From positions 4,170 through 36,423 of the forward strand of contig CAZSHK010000004.1 in NCBI GenBank assembly GCA_964606965.1: DNA of 32,254 bases, read 5' to 3'. Every line of letters starts with the position of its first letter. Position 1 is the first letter of the stretch. Origin of the DNA: an uncultured Candidatus Saccharibacteria bacterium. Lineage in GTDB: Bacteria; Patescibacteriota; Saccharimonadia; Saccharimonadales; CAYVSP01. A program made the translations under genes and the position numbers. The notes under the pieces are model-generated. The model was given only the letters and a program-made list of their open reading frames with translations. It ran no database searches and was not told where the DNA came from. This document shows positions 5,202 through 30,929 of the stretch, one piece after another.

Positions 5202-5715
5202 CTGCAAATTTTTGCTGAAGTTTTTGGATTTTAGGATCAATAACTATTTGGCAGTAGGCCTGACCAGGATTATTGTTATAAAAATTCTGGCTATTTTCGT
5301 CAGCCGGCCAGAACTTTTCATACGGTGCTAACTGAGTAACGATCGGATCTTTGTAAAGTGTAGGTACAAAATCTTTTATCATAGCTTGTGCAACTTTTTT
5401 CTGCTCCGCGTCATGATAAAAAATAACCGACCGATAAATTTCGCCGACATCTGCGCCCTGACGGTTTAGGGTAGTAGGGTTATGCATGGCAAAAAATATT
5501 TCCAATAGTTCTTTATAGGTAACTATCTCTGGATCAAAAGTTATCTGTACGACTTCAGCATGGCCAGTTGTCATAGTGTAGACCTGTTGACTGGTCGGAT
5601 TATCTAAGTGTCCGCCGCAGTAGCCCGAAACTACCTTTTCGACACCTTTAACGCGTTGGTAGAACGCCTCGAGGCACCAGTAGCAGCCGCCACCTAAAGT
5701 TGCCAGAGAATTCAT
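5188..5715 (-). CDS. msrA: Peptide-methionine (S)-S-oxide reductase MsrA
   Basis: N-terminal GGGCYWC active-site motif and the GHAEVV motif; 175 aa. Confidence 0.93.
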   Translation of the reverse strand: MNSLATLGGGCYWCLEAFYQRVKGVEKVVSGYCGGHLDNPTSQQVYTMTTGHAEVVQITFDPEIVTYKELLEIFFAMHNPTTLNRQGADVGEIYRSVIFYHDAEQKKVAQAMIKDFVPTLYKDPIVTQLAPYEKFWPADENSQNFYNNNPGQAYCQIVIDPKIQKLQQKFAAKLK

Positions 5716-7427: not shown

Positions 7428-7808
7428 GTGATTAAAAAAATTCTTTTTATTGAGGACGAAACGCAACTAGCCGACCTGTATGCCATGGTACTACGCAAAG
7501 AGGGCTATGGGGTCACAGTTGCGAAAGATGGTCTGGAGGGCTTCAAGTTAGCCCAAAATGGCGATTTTGATCTGTTATTACTTGATTTAATGCTGCCTAA
7601 TATGTCCGGTTTTGATATTTTGAAAGCGTTGCGTGACCCACAGAAATCACCTGACTTTAAAGCCCGGATTATTGTTTTGACAAACTTTGGGGAAGATCCC
7701 GAAACTCGTCAAAAAATGGAAGCCCAAACCGACGGCTATCTGCTAAAAGTAAACTACACACCCCGCGCTCTGGTGGAATATATAAAGAATCTTCCATCTA
7801 AAAATTAG
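7428..7808 (+). CDS. Single-domain response regulator (receiver only, CheY-like)
   Basis: GTG start. Canonical receiver residues are present: ED pair (IEDE), phospho-acceptor Asp in LLLLDLMLP, Thr in VLTN, Lys in LLKV. No output domain. Confidence 0.88.
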   Translation: MIKKILFIEDETQLADLYAMVLRKEGYGVTVAKDGLEGFKLAQNGDFDLLLLDLMLPNMSGFDILKALRDPQKSPDFKARIIVLTNFGEDPETRQKMEAQTDGYLLKVNYTPRALVEYIKNLPSKN

Positions 7809-15302: not shown

Positions 15303-15317
15303 TTTTTCTGCAGCCCT

Positions 15318-15351
15318 AAACCCCTTATGAATAAAACCATAAGGGGTTTTT
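15318..15351 (+). terminator. Rho-independent terminator
   Basis: Perfect 12 bp stem AAACCCCTTATG / CATAAGGGGTTT (15318-15329 / 15338-15349) with an 8 nt loop, running into a T-tract. Confidence 0.85.
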
Positions 15352-15384
15352 GTATACCCGCATAACGCTATATAATAAGAGAAC

Positions 15385-17027: not shown

Positions 17028-17137
17028 AGCTCTGCTTAATAACTAACTGAGACTACTTGTTTTAAGCAGTATACTTAAGGTACAGCTAGGGCAGATTGCC
17101 AGGTTTCGATCAATTGCAAAAGCTTAAGAGGTATGGT

Positions 17138-18280
17138 ATGATTCCGAGGGTTATAAAAAAACTAAAAATGAAACGAAAAGCAGGCCTCACTCGCTATTCA
17201 GTTGTGCCGCTGGCAATTATGACGGCGGTCTTTGGCTTTACTGTAATTGCGCACCCTCTGGTGCTAGCAGACCGTTTTGATGATCAAATTAATGCTCTTA
17301 GGGCTCAAAATAACCAGAACAGTGCAGCTCGAGCTCAACTAGGTGCCGAAGCTGCCAGTTTGGCTGATGCTGTGTTTAAGCTGCAACAACAAATTGACAC
17401 ACTTCAAGCTCAGATCAATGCCAATCAAGCAAAAAGTGATGATTTACAGCGACAGATTGCTGCTGCTCAAGCAGAACTAGAACAGCAAAAAGCAATTCTA
17501 GGTGAAAACATCAAAACCATGTACTTGGAAGGACAGATTAGTACGCTTGAAATGCTGGCTTCTAGTAAAGACTTGAGTGATTTTGTTGATAAGCAGCAAT
17601 ACCGAAATTCGGTGTCGGATAAGATTAAATCAACCGTTCAAAAAATTACTGACTTAAAACTACAATTAGCTAAGCAACAAGAAGAAGTCGATAAGTTATT
17701 AGTTGATCAACGGGCCATGAATGTCCAGTTAGATGGTCAACGGGCTGAGCAAGCTGCCTTATTGGCTGCTAATGAGGGTCAACAGGCCAATTTGAGCTCC
17801 CAGATTAAGTCTAATAACGGTCAAATATCTGAATTACGCCGCCAACAGGCCATTGAAAACTCCCGCTACAACATAGGCAGCATGAAAGGTGATCCCAACA
17901 ATGGTGGTTATCCATCAGTCTGGGCAAATGCACCGCAAGACAGCCAGATAGATAACTGGGGCATGTATAACCGAGAATGTGTTAGCTTTACTGCCTGGAA
18001 AGTTTGGAACAGTGGACGGCACATGCCTTATTGGGGCGGCATCGGTAATGCTAACCAATGGGACGACAATGCTCGGGCTTCCGGTATTCCTGTTGACGGC
18101 ACACCTCGGGAAGGCGATGTGGCCATTAGTAATTCTGGCCCATACGGTCACGCCATGTATGTTGAATCTGTTGGTGGCAACGGAACCATTTACGTTTCTC
18201 AGTACAATGCTGCGTTGAATGGTCAGTACTCAGAGGGCTGGAGGTACACCACCGGCCTAGTCTTCATCCATTTCCAGTAA
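17138..18280 (+). CDS. PcsB-like secreted peptidoglycan hydrolase: signal anchor, long Q-rich coiled coil, C-terminal CHAP domain
   Basis: CHAP catalytic Cys (NRECVSFTAWKV) and His (GHAMYVESV). About 200 aa of heptad-like Q/A/L-rich sequence. ATG 17138 has AAGAGG 6 nt upstream. Confidence 0.85.
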   Translation: MIPRVIKKLKMKRKAGLTRYSVVPLAIMTAVFGFTVIAHPLVLADRFDDQINALRAQNNQNSAARAQLGAEAASLADAVFKLQQQIDTLQAQINANQAKSDDLQRQIAAAQAELEQQKAILGENIKTMYLEGQISTLEMLASSKDLSDFVDKQQYRNSVSDKIKSTVQKITDLKLQLAKQQEEVDKLLVDQRAMNVQLDGQRAEQAALLAANEGQQANLSSQIKSNNGQISELRRQQAIENSRYNIGSMKGDPNNGGYPSVWANAPQDSQIDNWGMYNRECVSFTAWKVWNSGRHMPYWGGIGNANQWDDNARASGIPVDGTPREGDVAISNSGPYGHAMYVESVGGNGTIYVSQYNAALNGQYSEGWRYTTGLVFIHFQ

Positions 18281-18447
18281 AAGCTACAGGCCGCGATCGT
18301 CCTGCTGGCTAGCGGAGCTGGCCACCTGACGATCACTCTTGGCGCATTACGGCGCCAGCCGTTCCAGTACTCATTCACCGTATTACCTATACGCCTCATT
18401 CCGTGCTTCACGGCTTCCTTGTGCTGCAACCAAGCCTGTAGCCTTTA
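18278..18447 (+). repeat. Copy 1 of a ~170 nt structured intergenic repeat (candidate ncRNA family)
   Basis: Homologous to 24511-24679 and 29614-29785. Helices: P1 18283-18291/18434-18442, P2 18295-18301/18328-18334, P2a 18306-18312/18318-18324, P3 18341-18345/18352-18356, P5 18357-18362/18410-18415, P4 18379-18383/18389-18393. Confidence 0.8.
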
Positions 18448-18553: not shown

Positions 18554-19768
18554 ATGTCAGAAATAGAGACTGAAGTTAAAAAGCAACGGCAGTGGCCACG
18601 CTTACTGATAGGCTCGTTCCTAGCTTTAGCTATTTTTATTGCTGGGATAGGAGTAGGTAACGGTAGTATTCATGTGTCACTCGGACGTTTTACATCGAAA
18701 CCAGTTGCCAAGAACTTACCGGCCAATTTGGATTATCGGGCAGTTGAACAAGTTTATGATTCACTTAAGGCCAACTACGATGGCCAACTCGATATCAATA
18801 AACTGCTTGATGGCCTGAAGCAGGGTCTGGTGACGGCCAGCGGTGATCCTTACTCTGAATACTTTAATCCCAATCAGGCGACAGATTTCAGTAACGAGCT
18901 CAGCGGCACTTTTACTGGCATAGGAGCCGAGTTGGGCAAAGATGCCAATGATAATATTGTCGTTATTGCCCCCATTAGTGGCTTTCCGGCTGAAAAGGCT
19001 GGCCTAAGACCTAAAGATATAGTTGTTGAAGTTGATGGTAAGAGCACCGCGGATATGACGGTCAGTCAGGCTGTAGATAAAATTCGCGGTCCTAAAGACA
19101 CACAGGTGAAATTAAAAATTATTCGCGGCACAACCCCACAAGAAATTTCAATTACACGTGCCACCATCACTGTTCCAAGTGTTACCTCAAAAATTTTAGA
19201 GGGCAACGTTGGTTATCTTAAGATCAGTCGTTTTGGTGAAGATACAGTCAGTTTAAGTCAAAAAGCCGCCCAGGACTTCAAAGACAAGAATGTTAGGACT
19301 GTGGTCCTAGATATGCGCAGTGATCCCGGTGGTTTGCTCGAAGCCGCCGTCAAAGTGTCTAGTCTTTGGCTGCCGCCTGGCAAGACGGTGCTGACTGAAA
19401 GGCGAGGTGGCGTAGTCGATCGCACGTATTCATCTAGTGGTAATGCAATCTTGCAGGGCCTAAAGACAGTCGTACTGATAGATGAAGGCAGTGCCAGTGC
19501 CAGTGAAATAACAGCCGGTGCTTTAAAAGACAACGGTGCAGCTACGCTCGTGGGCAAAAAGAGCTTTGGTAAGGGTAGTGTTCAGCAGTTGATTAATTTT
19601 AAAGACGGCAGCGAACTAAAAGTTACTGTTGCTCGTTGGTACACACCAAACGGACGCAATATTGATAAAGAAGGCATTGAACCAGATAAGAAAGTTGATC
19701 GCAGCGCGGACGACATTAAAAATAACAAAGATCCGCAACTCGATGCGGCCATAGCATCTCTAAAGTAG
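18554..19768 (+). CDS. ctpA: Carboxy-terminal processing protease (S41 family) with PDZ domain
   Basis: N-terminal TM anchor, PDZ (GFPAEKAGLRPKDIVVEVDG), S41 catalytic region (DMRSDPGG, GSASASEI, KSFGKGSVQ). Confidence 0.9.
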   Translation: MSEIETEVKKQRQWPRLLIGSFLALAIFIAGIGVGNGSIHVSLGRFTSKPVAKNLPANLDYRAVEQVYDSLKANYDGQLDINKLLDGLKQGLVTASGDPYSEYFNPNQATDFSNELSGTFTGIGAELGKDANDNIVVIAPISGFPAEKAGLRPKDIVVEVDGKSTADMTVSQAVDKIRGPKDTQVKLKIIRGTTPQEISITRATITVPSVTSKILEGNVGYLKISRFGEDTVSLSQKAAQDFKDKNVRTVVLDMRSDPGGLLEAAVKVSSLWLPPGKTVLTERRGGVVDRTYSSSGNAILQGLKTVVLIDEGSASASEITAGALKDNGAATLVGKKSFGKGSVQQLINFKDGSELKVTVARWYTPNGRNIDKEGIEPDKKVDRSADDIKNNKDPQLDAAIASLK

Positions 19769-21471: not shown

Positions 21472-21894
21472 ATGATGGTTATGGATAACGCTGCACCTGT
21501 TACGCCACCTGCCAATGCGGCACCACCTAAAAAGATTCTACTGGTCGAAGACGATGACGCTTTGGCGGCGGTATATCAAACGCGCCTAGAGGCTGAAGGC
21601 TTTGCTATTAAGCGTGTTCCGAATGGAGAAGACGCCCTGGCTTCTGCCCAAGCCTATCGGCCCGATTTAATTCTGCTTGATGTCATGATGCCCAAAGTCA
21701 GTGGTTTTGATGTGCTTGATATTTTGCGTAATACGCCGGAGACGGCCAACATAAAAGTGGTTATGCTTACGGCTCTAAGTCAGGAAAGTGATAAGGAGCG
21801 AGCCCGCTCTTTAGGAGTTGACGACTATTTGGTAAAAAGCCAGGTGGTAATTGCAGACGTGGTTGAACGAATTCGACACCATTTAGGCCTATAG
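21472..21894 (+). CDS. Single-domain response regulator (receiver only)
   Basis: VEDDD acidic cluster, phospho-acceptor Asp in LILLDVMMP, Thr in MLTA, Lys in YLVKS. Paralogous to 7428-7808. No output domain. Confidence 0.88.
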   Translation: MMVMDNAAPVTPPANAAPPKKILLVEDDDALAAVYQTRLEAEGFAIKRVPNGEDALASAQAYRPDLILLDVMMPKVSGFDVLDILRNTPETANIKVVMLTALSQESDKERARSLGVDDYLVKSQVVIADVVERIRHHLGL

Positions 21895-24510: not shown

Positions 24511-24679
24511 TTAGAACCTCTTGCCAGTCAGCCTGCTTCCATGCAGAGCATGAAACTCTGCTGACTTCTTGGCGCATTGCGGCGTCAGCTTAGCTCTGTC
24601 ACTCGTTCACCGTACAACATGTACGACTCACTCGTTCCTCGCTAGCTTCCTTGCACTGCATCCAAGCAAGAGGCTCTAA
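24511..24679 (+). repeat. Copy 2 of the structured intergenic repeat (candidate ncRNA); + strand orientation, antisense to the flanking genes
   Basis: Helices: P0 24511-24515/24675-24679, P1 24517-24524/24666-24673, P2 24526-24532/24560-24566, P2a 24540-24544/24548-24552, P3 24571-24575/24582-24586, P5 24587-24594/24641-24647, P4 24611-24615/24621-24625. Confidence 0.8.
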
Positions 24680-28438: not shown

Positions 28439-28924
28439 ATGGATATAGTACTAATTGTAATAACAATATTTGTATTGTTATTTGGTTTTGTATTGTTTTT
28501 TGGAGCTCCTTACTTGCCAACTTTAAAGAAACAGTCAGAAGAAGCCTTGGATTTATTAGATCTGAAAACATGCCAAACTTTATTAGAGCTTGGTTGTGGC
28601 GATGGCCGTGTGCTCAAGGCGGCCGCCAAACGTGGCCTGCAAGCTATCGGCTATGAGTTGAACCCTATATTAGTAATTATCGCTAAAATTTACACACTGC
28701 CGGAGCGTAAAAGCGTCAAAATTATCTGGGGTAATTATTGGTCTAAATCATGGCCAAAAACTGACGGCATATTCGTCTTTCTACTTAATAAATACATGGA
28801 AAAACTGGATTCAAAAATTATTCAAGAATGCGATAAGCCTATTAAATTAGTTAGCTTTGCATTCAAAGTTCCAAACAGAAAAATCCTTAAAGAAAAGGAT
28901 GCTCTTTATCTCTATAAGTACTGA
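28439..28924 (+). CDS. Small class I SAM-dependent methyltransferase with an N-terminal TM helix
   Basis: Motif I LLELGCGDGRVL preceded by a hydrophobic N-terminus; 161 aa. Confidence 0.7.
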   Translation: MDIVLIVITIFVLLFGFVLFFGAPYLPTLKKQSEEALDLLDLKTCQTLLELGCGDGRVLKAAAKRGLQAIGYELNPILVIIAKIYTLPERKSVKIIWGNYWSKSWPKTDGIFVFLLNKYMEKLDSKIIQECDKPIKLVSFAFKVPNRKILKEKDALYLYKY

Positions 28925-28961
28925 GTGCAGAGTAGAGCCTAAATATGTTACCATTAGCAAT

Positions 28962-29618
28962 ATGATTAATCGTGACGAACGTGGCTCGGTTGCTTTGTTT
29001 ATTGCCCTGGGAATTTCAATATTGTTAATTGTGATCATTGCTATTTTTGGCATTTGGGCCTTTAGCAGCCGACAGGATTACAAAGATAACTCTGACCAGA
29101 AGGCCGCCGCAGCCGTAGCTGCTGCCGTAAAGAAAGAAGATGCCAAGAAAGACGCTGATTTTGTCGAAAAAGAGAAGAATCCATTCAGAACTTATACTGG
29201 TCCCGAGCAGTATGGTAAAGTAACCATTCAATATCCTAAAACCTGGAGTGCTGCCATTAATGAAGGCACCAGTGGAACCGTTATTGACGGTTATCTACAC
29301 CCTAACTTCGTACCATCACTTCAGTCAGCTACAAACTTTGCACTACGGGTTCAAGTTGTTCAGAGCACATATGATGCGGTCTTAAAGGGGTTTGATTCAT
29401 CGGTAAAAACTGGACGGGTAAAGGTTACGCCTTATGTTGCGCCGAAGCAGTCTGGCGTTACCGGTGCGCGCCTGGACGGGCAGCTGACAACGCAAAAGAG
29501 CGGCACCATGGTTCTATTGCCGCTGCGCGATAAAACCATCAAGATCTGGACCGAATCAGATCAGTTCGTTGGTGATTTTAATAATATTATACTCGCCAAT
29601 CTAACATTCCAGCCTTAA
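28962..29618 (+). CDS. Membrane-anchored hypothetical protein with a TadE/TadG-like N-terminal segment
   Basis: N-terminus RDERGSVALFIALGISILLIVII resembles the Tad pilus-assembly N-terminal motif; the rest is unassigned. ATG 28962 is preferred because the longer ORF overlaps the methyltransferase. Confidence 0.55.
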   Translation: MINRDERGSVALFIALGISILLIVIIAIFGIWAFSSRQDYKDNSDQKAAAAVAAAVKKEDAKKDADFVEKEKNPFRTYTGPEQYGKVTIQYPKTWSAAINEGTSGTVIDGYLHPNFVPSLQSATNFALRVQVVQSTYDAVLKGFDSSVKTGRVKVTPYVAPKQSGVTGARLDGQLTTQKSGTMVLLPLRDKTIKIWTESDQFVGDFNNIILANLTFQP

Positions 29619-29785
29619 AGCTTGCACCGCGCCAGCCTGCCGTCTAGCGTAGCTGGCCGCACCGCTGGCGCTCTTGGTCCGCCTTAGGCGGATCAGCTGT
29701 CTCAGTCACTCACTCACCGTACCACTTGTACGACACGCTCGTTACTAGTTGCTTCCTTGTACTGCATCCAAGTGCAAGCGTTAAG
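29614..29785 (+). repeat. Copy 3 of the structured intergenic repeat (candidate ncRNA)
   Basis: Helices: P0 29614-29618/29781-29785, P1 29620-29627/29772-29779, P2 29629-29636/29664-29671, P2a 29639-29646/29650-29657, P3 29676-29683/29687-29694, P4 29718-29722/29728-29732, P5 base 29695-29697/29751-29753. Confidence 0.8.
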
Positions 29786-29853: not shown

Positions 29854-30555
29854 ATGGCGCACAAGGCAACGGTGGATCAGCGTTTGCTTTTAGCACTAGC
29901 CGAGCAGCTCAAAGTGCCACTGCTTCAGATTGCCCGTCGCGCAGAATTATCACAAAACAGTCGTCGGCCAAAGCAGCAGCTGGAAGCCATTGAATTAACG
30001 GCCGATAATGCCCTTAGCCTGATTGATCATTACTTATTAAGTACCCGTTTGGCCATGGAAGGTGCTGTTTTAGAACCCGTATCAGTTGCTTCTGTATTGC
30101 ACGATACGGCACAATCTCTGAGTAAGTTGGCAAGCGACTATCACTGCAAGCTAGAACTACATTTGAGTGGCCGGTACGAGCCAGTCATGGCCCATCGAGA
30201 AGGCTTGGCGGCAGCCCTTTTAGATATTGGCCATGATATGATCGAGGCCGAAGTACAGCAAAGTAAAAAACCCGTCGTAACGCTAGCTGCTCACCGGGGC
30301 AAAAAGGGAATTGTGGCCGGGGTATTTGGTGATACTGAAGGTCTAACAGCTGACATGTTTCGCCGCTCGCGCAAGCTATACGGACAAGCTAAACAACCGC
30401 TTAACACTGTCTCGGCTCATCCGGTGGCGGGTATTTTTGTCGCTGATTCGCTTCTACATTCAATGGCCACACGCCTGCGTGTAGCTCACCACCACAAACT
30501 AAGTGGTCTAGCTGCAACCTTGCTCCCCAGTCAGCAACTAGCTTTACTGACATGA
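29854..30555 (+). CDS. Histidine-kinase-like protein (DHp plus CA-like fold) lacking the phospho-His and key ATP-binding residues (pseudokinase)
   Basis: LALAEQLKVPLLQI aligns to the H-box SHELRTPL with His replaced by Glu. The N-box position reads LLDIGHDMIEA (no Asn). G1-like FGDTEGL and G2-like PVAGIFVA are degenerate. No TM or sensor domain. Confidence 0.6.
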   Translation: MAHKATVDQRLLLALAEQLKVPLLQIARRAELSQNSRRPKQQLEAIELTADNALSLIDHYLLSTRLAMEGAVLEPVSVASVLHDTAQSLSKLASDYHCKLELHLSGRYEPVMAHREGLAAALLDIGHDMIEAEVQQSKKPVVTLAAHRGKKGIVAGVFGDTEGLTADMFRRSRKLYGQAKQPLNTVSAHPVAGIFVADSLLHSMATRLRVAHHHKLSGLAATLLPSQQLALLT

Positions 30556-30929
30556 AAATTATGCTCATTGAACCGGATATGCAATTGGGCCGAATCTATG
30601 CGAAGGCACTTCAGCGAGTGGGTCACCAAGTCCACTGGCAGCGTAATGCTCAAGAGTCTATTGATGTAGCCGATAAGGTTCATCCAGAGGCGGTAATTCT
30701 TGAAGTGCAGCTGGCGCGACACAATGGAATTGAATTCTTGTACGAGTTTCGTAGTTATCCCGACTGGCAACAGGTACCCGTCATACTCCACACCAATGCA
30801 ATTGAACTGCCAGCAGATGAGCGTTTGTTAGCTCGTCTGGGTGTGCAGGCAATTCTTTACAAGCCACAGACAACACTGGCTACTTTAATTGCCACTGTCG
30901 AGCGGTTGCGCGATACTGCCTTAGTATGA
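30552..30929 (+). CDS. Receiver-domain protein with Glu in place of the phospho-acceptor Asp (pseudo-receiver)
   Basis: PEAVILEVQLARHNG aligns to PDLVLLDxxMPxxDG, giving D to E. The conserved Thr (ILHTN) and Lys (LYKPQ) are retained. ATGA overlap with the upstream kinase-like gene. Confidence 0.7.
   Translation: MKIMLIEPDMQLGRIYAKALQRVGHQVHWQRNAQESIDVADKVHPEAVILEVQLARHNGIEFLYEFRSYPDWQQVPVILHTNAIELPADERLLARLGVQAILYKPQTTLATLIATVERLRDTALV

Follow-up and report, generated by a model that had tools for sequence, protein, structure and literature searches.

The 32,254-nt stretch of Candidatus Saccharibacteria DNA analysed here, hereafter the window, contains three copies of an intergenic element that is a member of a previously uncatalogued family of non-coding repeats of about 175 nt (175-180 nt), present in certain Saccharibacteria lineages, in which pairing is kept by selection, copy by copy, for one secondary structure. 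As to what the element does, we consider it an even call that it represents a new family of structure-constrained intergenic repeats working as a co-transcribed cis RNA module, comparable in kind to the bcr1 and ERIC repeats.

The first-pass annotation of the window, made from the sequence alone, had pointed to three homologous intergenic stretches, and this holds: mean column identity across the aligned copies is 76%. Their limits, from outer P1 to outer P1 (P1 being the closing helix), and their matches to the revised covariance model described below are the following:

18279-18446, minus strand: copy 1 (142 bits, E 6e-39)
24512-24678, minus strand: copy 2 (167 bits)
29615-29784, minus strand: copy 3 (141 bits)

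Copy 1 occupies most of the gap between a CHAP-domain gene (17096-18280, plus strand) and an S41 protease gene (18554-19768, plus strand), and the 3' strand of its P1 (18279-18290, in the minus-strand reading) overlaps the CHAP stop codon, TAA at 18278-18280. Copy 2 is flanked by the stop of a methyltransferase gene (24701) and the start of rpmA (24510), which encodes L27; because both genes are on the minus strand, the minus-strand fold of this copy is sense and lies in the rpmA 5' leader. Copy 3 is located between two uncharacterised genes (28857-29618 and 29854-30555, both on the plus strand). These sites are the three largest intergenic gaps of the window, and the G+C content of the copies is 51-57%, versus 44-47% in the window. 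Searching the window for the 22-nt block GCTTCCTTGNNCTGCANCCAAG gives exactly three matches, also when up to three mismatches are allowed, while it is found in 0 of 100 dinucleotide shuffles; CTCNNTCACCGTA likewise occurs three times. No fourth copy or fragment was detected in the window by a full covariance-model scan with filters off. Weak model matches of about 6 bits were obtained on both strands at 15311-15356 and 5273-5325; these are plain hairpins in short gaps and probably ordinary terminators.

To define the family, the 22-nt pattern was run on 185,579 species genomes and two covariance models were then applied to the retrieved loci, which are labelled L001, L005, L019 and so on, a letter suffix giving the copy within a locus. 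The pattern identified 35 loci, 31 of which are in metagenome-assembled genomes (MAGs) of Saccharibacteria or Patescibacteria and are all true homologs, the remaining four, from unrelated phyla, being chance matches. The first model, trained on 30 sequences, detected 11 additional copies without the exact pattern in the same loci (~220 kb), or about one copy per 10-20 kb. Altogether the covariance models found 48 copies in the ~1 Mb searched, nearly all of them in Saccharibacteria MAGs, so that the relatives do carry the further copies that the first-pass annotation had expected. That annotation had also taken three copies in 32 kb as the sign of a high-copy family, which is true of the related MAGs, with roughly one copy per 10-20 kb, but the abundance is lineage-specific. 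A protein-anchored metagenome scan, in which the XseA gene was picked as anchor so that the sites of copies 1-3 fall within the flanks, retrieved 80 Saccharibacteria loci (829 kb) syntenic with the window, with proteins 57-65% identical to those of the window, and these loci contain just five copies. Therefore, the element is dense in some lineages and near-absent in others.

Only one truncated fragment was found among the 48 copies. At L014:6481-6731 a full diverged copy is followed by a 5'-truncated 3' fragment of a second copy, of ~70 nt, that retains the exact 22-nt pattern; this region is identical to L028:4119-4369, the two contigs belonging to one MAG. In IMG/VR the 22-nt pattern had 0 matches, and a looser pattern for the P4 core had eight, all of which were rejected as chance similarities of the hairpin only.

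The element could not be assigned to any known RNA. Rfam 15 (4227 models, including 6S, SRP, 5S, tmRNA, RNase P, riboswitches, HEARO and r-protein leaders) gave nothing at gathering thresholds over the whole window, and relaxing the E value to 10 yielded no more than noise (10-13 bits) on copies 1 and 2 and on the L006 copy, while ARAGORN found 0 tRNA or tmRNA genes in the window. This agrees with the earlier failure to match the copies to tRNA, tmRNA, 6S, SRP, RNase P or a riboswitch. No published description of the element was found in the literature on structured RNA, non-coding RNA, MITEs (miniature transposable elements with inverted repeats) or repeats of Saccharibacteria, Patescibacteria and the candidate phyla radiation.

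The fold shared by the family is a rod, P1-P1'-P6-P5a-P5b-P4b-P4, from which a side hairpin, P2/P2a, branches at a three-way junction. Its parts are given here for copy 2, together with the one feature that is private to copy 3:

24667-24678, minus strand: 5' strand of P1, partner 24512-24523
24662-24666, minus strand: P1' (CUUGG), partner CCAAG at 24568-24572
24653-24660, minus strand: 5' strand of P6 (UGCAGUGC), partner 24573-24580 (GC-AAUGCG)
24584-24650, minus strand: long arm, with the P4 hairpin at 24609-24627
24526-24566, minus strand: side hairpin P2/P2a, with a 4x4 internal loop; its 3-nt apical loop is closed by GC/GC
29678-29692, minus strand: local 6-bp hairpin of copy 3 only (tccgcc-tta-ggcgga), the long P3 of the first-pass annotation, in place of the 3' strand of P6

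That this structure is under selection, as had been argued from the three copies, is borne out by the family. The complementary pairs P1, P2, P2a, P4 and P5, for which conserved pairing with differing sequence had been claimed, are all present, and they covary strongly in an unbiased MAFFT alignment of 30 sequences on the strand read by the first-pass annotation (plus). In this alignment 88.4% of cells are paired under the plus-strand model and 91.1% under the revised one, versus 72-75% in shuffles. The covariation score is 0.473 for the first model (0.166 shuffled) and 0.478 for the revised model (0.187 shuffled), 0 of 500 shuffles reach it, and it is 0.05-0.12 when the partners are slid; double-change cells number 296 under the revised model versus 98.5 in shuffles. 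In the 48-copy alignment, which was fitted to the model and hence leans towards it, 93.6% of cells are paired and double changes occur at 50 of the 56 pairs. Indels and compensating changes track helices, not codons.

P1 is a helix of 12-26 bp with a different sequence in every copy (18435-18446 with 18279-18290 in copy 1, 29773-29784 with 29615-29626 in copy 3), and all of its 12 modelled pairs covary, each showing 4-6 pair types over the 48 copies. P1' (18430-18434 with 18338-18342 in copy 1, 29768-29772 with 29673-29677 in copy 3) is nearly invariant, with CUGGUGG/CCGCCAG instead in L098 and L112. The side hairpin, located at 18293-18336 in copy 1 and 29629-29671 in copy 3, is absent in L009b, L015, L098 and L112. 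Along the long arm (18354-18418 in copy 1, with P4 at 18377-18395; 29691-29756 in copy 3, with P4 at 29716-29734) there follow P5a (AGC/GCU), P5b, a GA/GA tandem mismatch, the 2-bp P4b, a G·A/A·G/G·U stack and the P4 hairpin. P5a is replaced by UUCUC/GAGAG in diverged copies, and P4b takes the forms GC/GC, GU/AC, AA/UU, CC/GG, AU/AU and CU/AG. Most of the conserved blocks that had been read as single-stranded are helices: in CTCTTGG the last five bases, CTTGG, are the partner of CCAAG, the P4 stem is formed by CCGTA, and AGC of the CAGC block pairs with GCT of GCTTCC.

P6 is a new long-range helix (GCGCA-TT-RC with G-YR-CTGCA) that competes with the P3 hairpin of the first-pass annotation. Its central pair is G-C in 15, A-U in 13, G-U in one and a non-pair in one of the 30 sequences, and among the 48 it is G-C in 21, A-U in 17, U-A in three and C-G in one. 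The first structural model, which was built on the plus strand and included either the P3 hairpin or just an extension by CTTGG/CCAAG, was superseded by the revised minus-strand model with P6, under which diverged copies gain 10-20 bits. P3 is not the main fold of the family and prevails only in odd copies such as copy 3. While P6 is complete in copy 1 (18421-18428 with 18343-18350), in copy 3 its 5' strand is present (29759-29766) and the partner is absent, and this copy, which the first model scores at 161 bits, reaches only 141 with the revised one; copy 3 may represent a variant structure, or it may be in the course of losing the fold of the family.

The strand that folds was reassessed with the whole family. 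The plus strand had been preferred on the basis of G-T pairs, which sat in P3 and P2a, and the G-U pairs of P3 lose weight now that P6 is recognised; a few such pairs in three copies can mislead on strand. Family-wide, P1, P2 and P2a on the plus strand contain 41 A-C versus 19 G-U oppositions, and the revised structure on the minus strand contains 114 G-U versus 47 A-C (61 versus 36 in the variable helices only). The minus-strand fold is more stable in 41 of 42 copies (mean -67.7 versus -56.3 kcal/mol), the shuffle z-score is better on the minus strand in 30 of 41 copies (means of -5.24 on minus and -3.97 on plus), and the RNAalifold consensus energy is -55.4 kcal/mol on minus versus -32.8 on plus. 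The conserved 2x2 loops are 5'-GA/GA tandem mismatches on the minus strand, which on the plus strand would be U·C/C·U, and the pair closing P4 is on the minus strand G-U in 18 copies, A-U in five and G-C in four, G·U becoming A·C on the plus strand. Unpaired bases on the minus strand are 76% purine (A 40%, G 36%). Given that one strand matters, the functional one is thus probably the minus strand of the window. The possibility that the folding strand is simply the sense strand of the neighbouring genes was tried and rejected, because the G-U and A-C counts, split by orientation, ran opposite to it.

The element is gained or lost at orthologous sites, the presence/absence polymorphism by which mobile repeats are recognised. 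The methyltransferase-rpmA gap measures 7-14 nt in 17 of 21 syntenic loci; its length is 190 nt in the window, and in L098 it is 170 nt. In relatives that lack the element here (L040, L041, L047 and others), the rpmA Shine-Dalgarno sequence AAGGAAG lies within the last codons of the methyltransferase gene (...ACAAGGAAGTAA). Within the FKBP-grx-trxB region, which is also syntenic, L005 and L013 have the element in one gap and L006 has it in the other. The first-pass annotation had held that the element does not look like a recently spread MITE. No recent burst is apparent, in view of an ortholog that survives silent-site saturation, but the empty orthologous sites and the differing gaps do reveal gain and loss.

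This ortholog is that of copy 3, which occurs at the same spot in L019 and L041. L019 is syntenic with the window from 24.7 to 31.6 kb, and the four-fold sites of seven flanking gene pairs are 29% identical between the two (n=573), which amounts to saturation. Copy 3 and its L019 counterpart are nevertheless 69% identical at unpaired and 72% at paired positions, with an identical P4 loop and compensated differences in P1 and P2a. Because the ortholog outlasts the saturation of silent sites, fold and core have been held at a fixed locus by selection, or by gene conversion.

Some smaller observations concern these sites. The heptamer AAGGAAG is also a conserved loop (CAAGGAAGC) on the minus strand of the element. 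Unrelated AT-rich short repeats (TAGATTCTAAAATCT-like) are present in the methyltransferase-rpmA gap at L085:7614-7680, L090:7542-7637 and L113:7549-7579, so that insertions seem to be favoured in this gap. A conserved palindrome, ACACAATATATNGTGT, with an operator-like look precedes the glutaredoxin gene in two genomes (L005:750-790, L006:1480-1520), and in L006 the element lies between the FKBP stop codon and this palindrome. At L006:1480-1535, just outside the element, TGGTGCGAATT resembles the 3' end of the family consensus (…GGUGCGAA) and may be the footprint of an earlier copy.

Genomic contexts and orientations were tabulated for 42 copies, as the first-pass annotation had suggested, and the orientation of the element is independent of the direction of neighbouring genes. 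With the element read as in that annotation, the upstream gene is co-directional in 25 cases and opposite in 13; both neighbours have the same direction as the element in 16 contexts and the opposite one in eight, whereas six contexts are convergent and five divergent. Both orientations even occur inside one rpsF-ssb-rpsR operon (L001). In the window the three copies share one orientation whatever the local gene direction, and since GC skew is positive on the plus strand along the whole window, this is probably the leading strand. When 281 flanking proteins were clustered all against all, only synteny groups and two-component paralogs proved to recur beside copies, and the flanking genes checked included no transposase, reverse transcriptase or integrase. 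Neither were consistent direct repeats detected at the ends of the 40 copies with defined P1 ends, whose boundaries are inexact and whose relatives are too diverged, nor a related autonomous insertion sequence, there being no transposase among the flanking genes examined.

The position of the element between genes is asymmetric. In most copies its 3' end, in the minus-strand reading, is ~10-20 nt from a gene end (stop or start codon), while at the opposite end the median gap is near 50 nt. The outer P1 regularly takes in the last codon and the stop codon of the neighbour, and this explains the short outer helix P0 with a TAA/TTA triplet that had been described: the triplet is real, but it is the neighbour's stop codon, or its complement, falling in outer P1. 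At the other kind of boundary, the Shine-Dalgarno sequence of the downstream gene is within P1 in copy 2 and L005a and outside P1 in the other leader-side copies; in copy 2 it was read from the sequence as follows:

24517-24521, minus strand: the rpmA Shine-Dalgarno sequence AGAGG, within the 3' strand of P1 of copy 2

Inspection of 90-nt flanks on both strands of the 42 copies, together with consensus scans, revealed no promoter- or terminator-like motif at a fixed distance. A U-tract does not consistently follow P1 on either strand, in agreement with the first-pass view that this is not a simple terminator, and an intrinsic terminator was rejected on these grounds. In terminator scans copy 1 yielded no more than an internal hairpin of 5 bp, and copy 3 yielded nothing; canonical terminators do occur elsewhere in element-bearing genomes. 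Because no promoter or terminator of its own is recognisable and one side abuts a gene end (~10 nt), transcription within neighbouring mRNAs is most likely, and for copy 2 co-transcription is implied by position, since the element lies too close to the start of rpmA for a promoter to fit in between.

Taking these features together, we postulate that repeats of ~175 nt were inserted into intergenic gaps of certain Saccharibacteria lineages and kept under selection for structure, which would act on a single-stranded transcript, the strand that matters being presumably the minus strand of the window. The element would be transcribed as part of neighbouring mRNAs, as its position suggests, most clearly so for copy 2. 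There it could serve as a cis-acting, compact, nuclease-resistant RNA module that sets transcript ends, processing or stability, and sometimes ribosome access, and its conserved purine-rich loops could bind a protein. The cis role, for which the bcr1, ERIC and REP repeats provide a parallel, is the weakest step.

Several points weigh against this proposal. Transcription, strand and cis action are all things that we infer from the sequence. The minus-strand fold is antisense to the neighbours in two thirds of the co-directional contexts, which is a poor fit to a cis role in mRNA, and a conserved core of ~100 nt is not obviously needed by a stability or processing module. On the plus strand the central pair of P5b is G-U or U-G in 13 of 30 copies, and copy 1 has a better z-score on that strand (-5.5) than on the minus strand (-4.6). 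The flanks and flanking genes checked revealed neither a target-site duplication nor a conserved terminal repeat nor an autonomous partner, and G·T and G·A are also the most stable mismatches in DNA, so that a fold in single-stranded DNA is possible.

Independence of orientation from the neighbours is also what would be expected if each copy were a minus-strand gene of its own, in a family of trans-acting small RNAs whose ~175-nt product scaffolds or titrates a protein via conserved purine-rich loops that contain tandem G·A as well as the motifs GGA and AAGGAAG, with P1 and P2 as mere scaffolding free to drift. Variable stems, conserved loops and orthologs persisting past silent-site saturation make up the pattern of paralogous RNA genes, the larger gap (median ~50 nt) is on what would be the promoter side while the other end abuts a gene, and the finding of a single truncated fragment among 48 copies fits as well. 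In addition, the copies L017 and L001a are just behind a canonical terminator of the upstream gene, which would shield the plus strand from read-through. However, no -10/-35 at a consistent distance and no consistent U-tract after the element were seen in the 42 copies, many promoter-side gaps are shorter than 35 nt, any partner or function must be dispensable given the near-absence from most syntenic relatives, and tens of near-redundant genes would be costly in a genome of ~1 Mb; we therefore hold such a gene family, although it is the main rival, to be rather unlikely. The P5b pairs and the copy 1 z-score, together with G-U in P5a of one subtype, would be accounted for by a functional plus-strand RNA, that is, an element of 3' untranslated or intercistronic regions whose loops, pyrimidine-rich and resembling anti-Shine-Dalgarno sequences (CUUCCUU, CUCCUCC, UCACC), would load Rho or pair with purine-rich sequence. 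In 25 of 38 contexts such an RNA is sense to the upstream gene, and it begins at the stop codon of that gene. Against it, the plus-strand fold is weaker in 41 of 42 copies, by 11 kcal/mol on average, with a mean z-score of -3.97 versus -5.24, its conserved internal loops would be tandem U·C/C·U rather than tandem G·A, A-C exceeds G-U in its variable helices, and 76% of its unpaired bases are pyrimidine, all of which makes it unlikely.

A role at the DNA level is harder still to credit and we regard it as improbable. The fold would then form in single-stranded DNA as the substrate of a host or domesticated nuclease or recombinase, in the style of REP-RAYT or IS200/IS605-TnpA, which would also spread the copies; gain or loss at orthologous sites, both orientations with respect to genes alongside a single orientation of the three window copies, and the stability of G·T and G·A mismatches in DNA are in keeping with it. 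Yet there is no HUH or other transposase among the flanking genes checked, the GTAG/CGTC tag is present in only five of 48 copies, the termini are not conserved, the better-folding strand is in the window, by GC skew, the leading-strand template, less exposed during replication, and the hairpins that recombinases are known to use are far simpler than a branched structure of 56 pairs. It can practically be set aside that the element is a protein-coding remnant, an assembly artefact or a chance similarity: a 68-aa open reading frame (18223-18429, minus strand) does overlap copy 1, but it is not preserved in copies 2 and 3, the changes follow helices, the pattern appears in none of the shuffles, and the 48 copies come from independent assemblies.

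The element shares with repeats of the bcr1/ERIC type what defines them as a functional class, not as a homology family: it is multi-copy and intergenic, and its fold is kept by compensatory changes. The bcr1 repeat of the Bacillus cereus group (~155 bp) resembles it in size, in being non-coding, intergenic and multi-copy, and in a distribution that differs between related genomes; bcr1 is transcribed, has a non-conserved distribution and compensatory base changes, and has been interpreted at the RNA level (Delihas 2011, PMC3184786). The two differ in that their sequences are unrelated, bcr1 has flanking 5-bp direct repeats, none of which were seen for the element, and bcr1 forms two independent stem-loops, whereas the element forms one rod with a side branch and a long-range helix; moreover, transcription of bcr1 has been demonstrated, while the element is known here from its sequence alone. 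ERIC/IRU sequences (~127 bp) are likewise imperfect long palindromes, located in intergenic regions that are transcribed, in either orientation and with strongly lineage-dependent copy number; ERIC affects mRNA decay, and sequences of this type have terminal inverted repeats, target duplications and a flanking TA (Delihas 2011, PMC3184786). The terminal helix of the element, in contrast, varies from copy to copy, and the element further includes a three-way junction and, on one strand, purine-purine mismatches that are conserved.

The likeness to REP/BIME/REPIN sequences lies in extragenic location, hairpin formation, high copy number, both orientations and long-term vertical inheritance. REPs are 20-40 nt long, bear a GTAG or CGTC tag and have a palindromic stem that is conserved, whereas the element is 175-180 nt long, and its stems vary while its loops are conserved. 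The REP tag GTAG/CTAC is found near the ends of just five of the 48 copies, and the flanking genes checked did not include a RAYT-like one. Small, non-autonomous foldback sequences with insertion polymorphism in compact genomes are also found among MITEs (for instance Correia, RUP and Nezha) and the palindromic elements of Rickettsia. Unlike them, the element has no conserved terminal inverted repeats, outer P1 being unrelated between copies, its stems are dissimilar among copies, and its orthologs are ~70% identical despite saturated silent sites. An integron attC site was rejected, as both RYYYAAC/GTTRRRY boxes are present in one of 48 copies per strand and the neighbours are syntenic housekeeping genes and not cassettes, and so were a bridge RNA, an omega-RNA and a retron, there being no IS110, TnpB, IscB, reverse transcriptase or integrase nearby. 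In architecture the element recalls 6S, SRP 4.5S, 5S and Y RNA, which have a closing helix formed from the two ends and a rod with conserved purine-rich internal loops, but these RNAs are present in one or few copies, whereas the element occurs several times per tens of kb and is missing from most relatives. The motif AAGGAAGCA is also present in E. coli 4.5S RNA, which we take as a lead only.

To our knowledge, bacteria of the candidate phyla radiation, which have tiny genomes, have almost no described non-coding RNAs beyond the universal ones. Covariation supports the 56-pair fold better than it does many curated Rfam families, and even if the element should be no more than a structured repeat, it remains useful as a marker and provides a clean case of selection preserving a fold for longer than silent sites keep signal. 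As a more tentative possibility, which we judge doubtful, the copies may be paralogous genes or domesticated repeats for a new Saccharibacteria-specific class of ~175-nt RNA, with a purine-rich core that recruits a dedicated protein or the ribosome. Should the element indeed bind a protein or the ribosome, this would be a new RNA class in organisms that are now genetically manipulable, with tens of loci per genome of ~1 Mb, each with private stems and a shared purine-rich core (tandem G·A, long-range helix, three-way junction), and it would imply in these reduced episymbionts a layer of RNA-based gene control or RNA processing without counterpart among described bacterial RNAs.

The genes that neighbour the copies in the window encode FtsX, the CHAP-domain hydrolase, the S41 protease, CTP synthase, L27, the methyltransferase, an LPG-synthase-like membrane protein, XseA and single-domain response regulators. 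The genes for the latter are three paralogs (Response_reg domain only, 125-140 aa) at 7428-7808, 21472-21894 and 30552-30929, and their homologs adjoin histidine kinase genes in several element-bearing loci.

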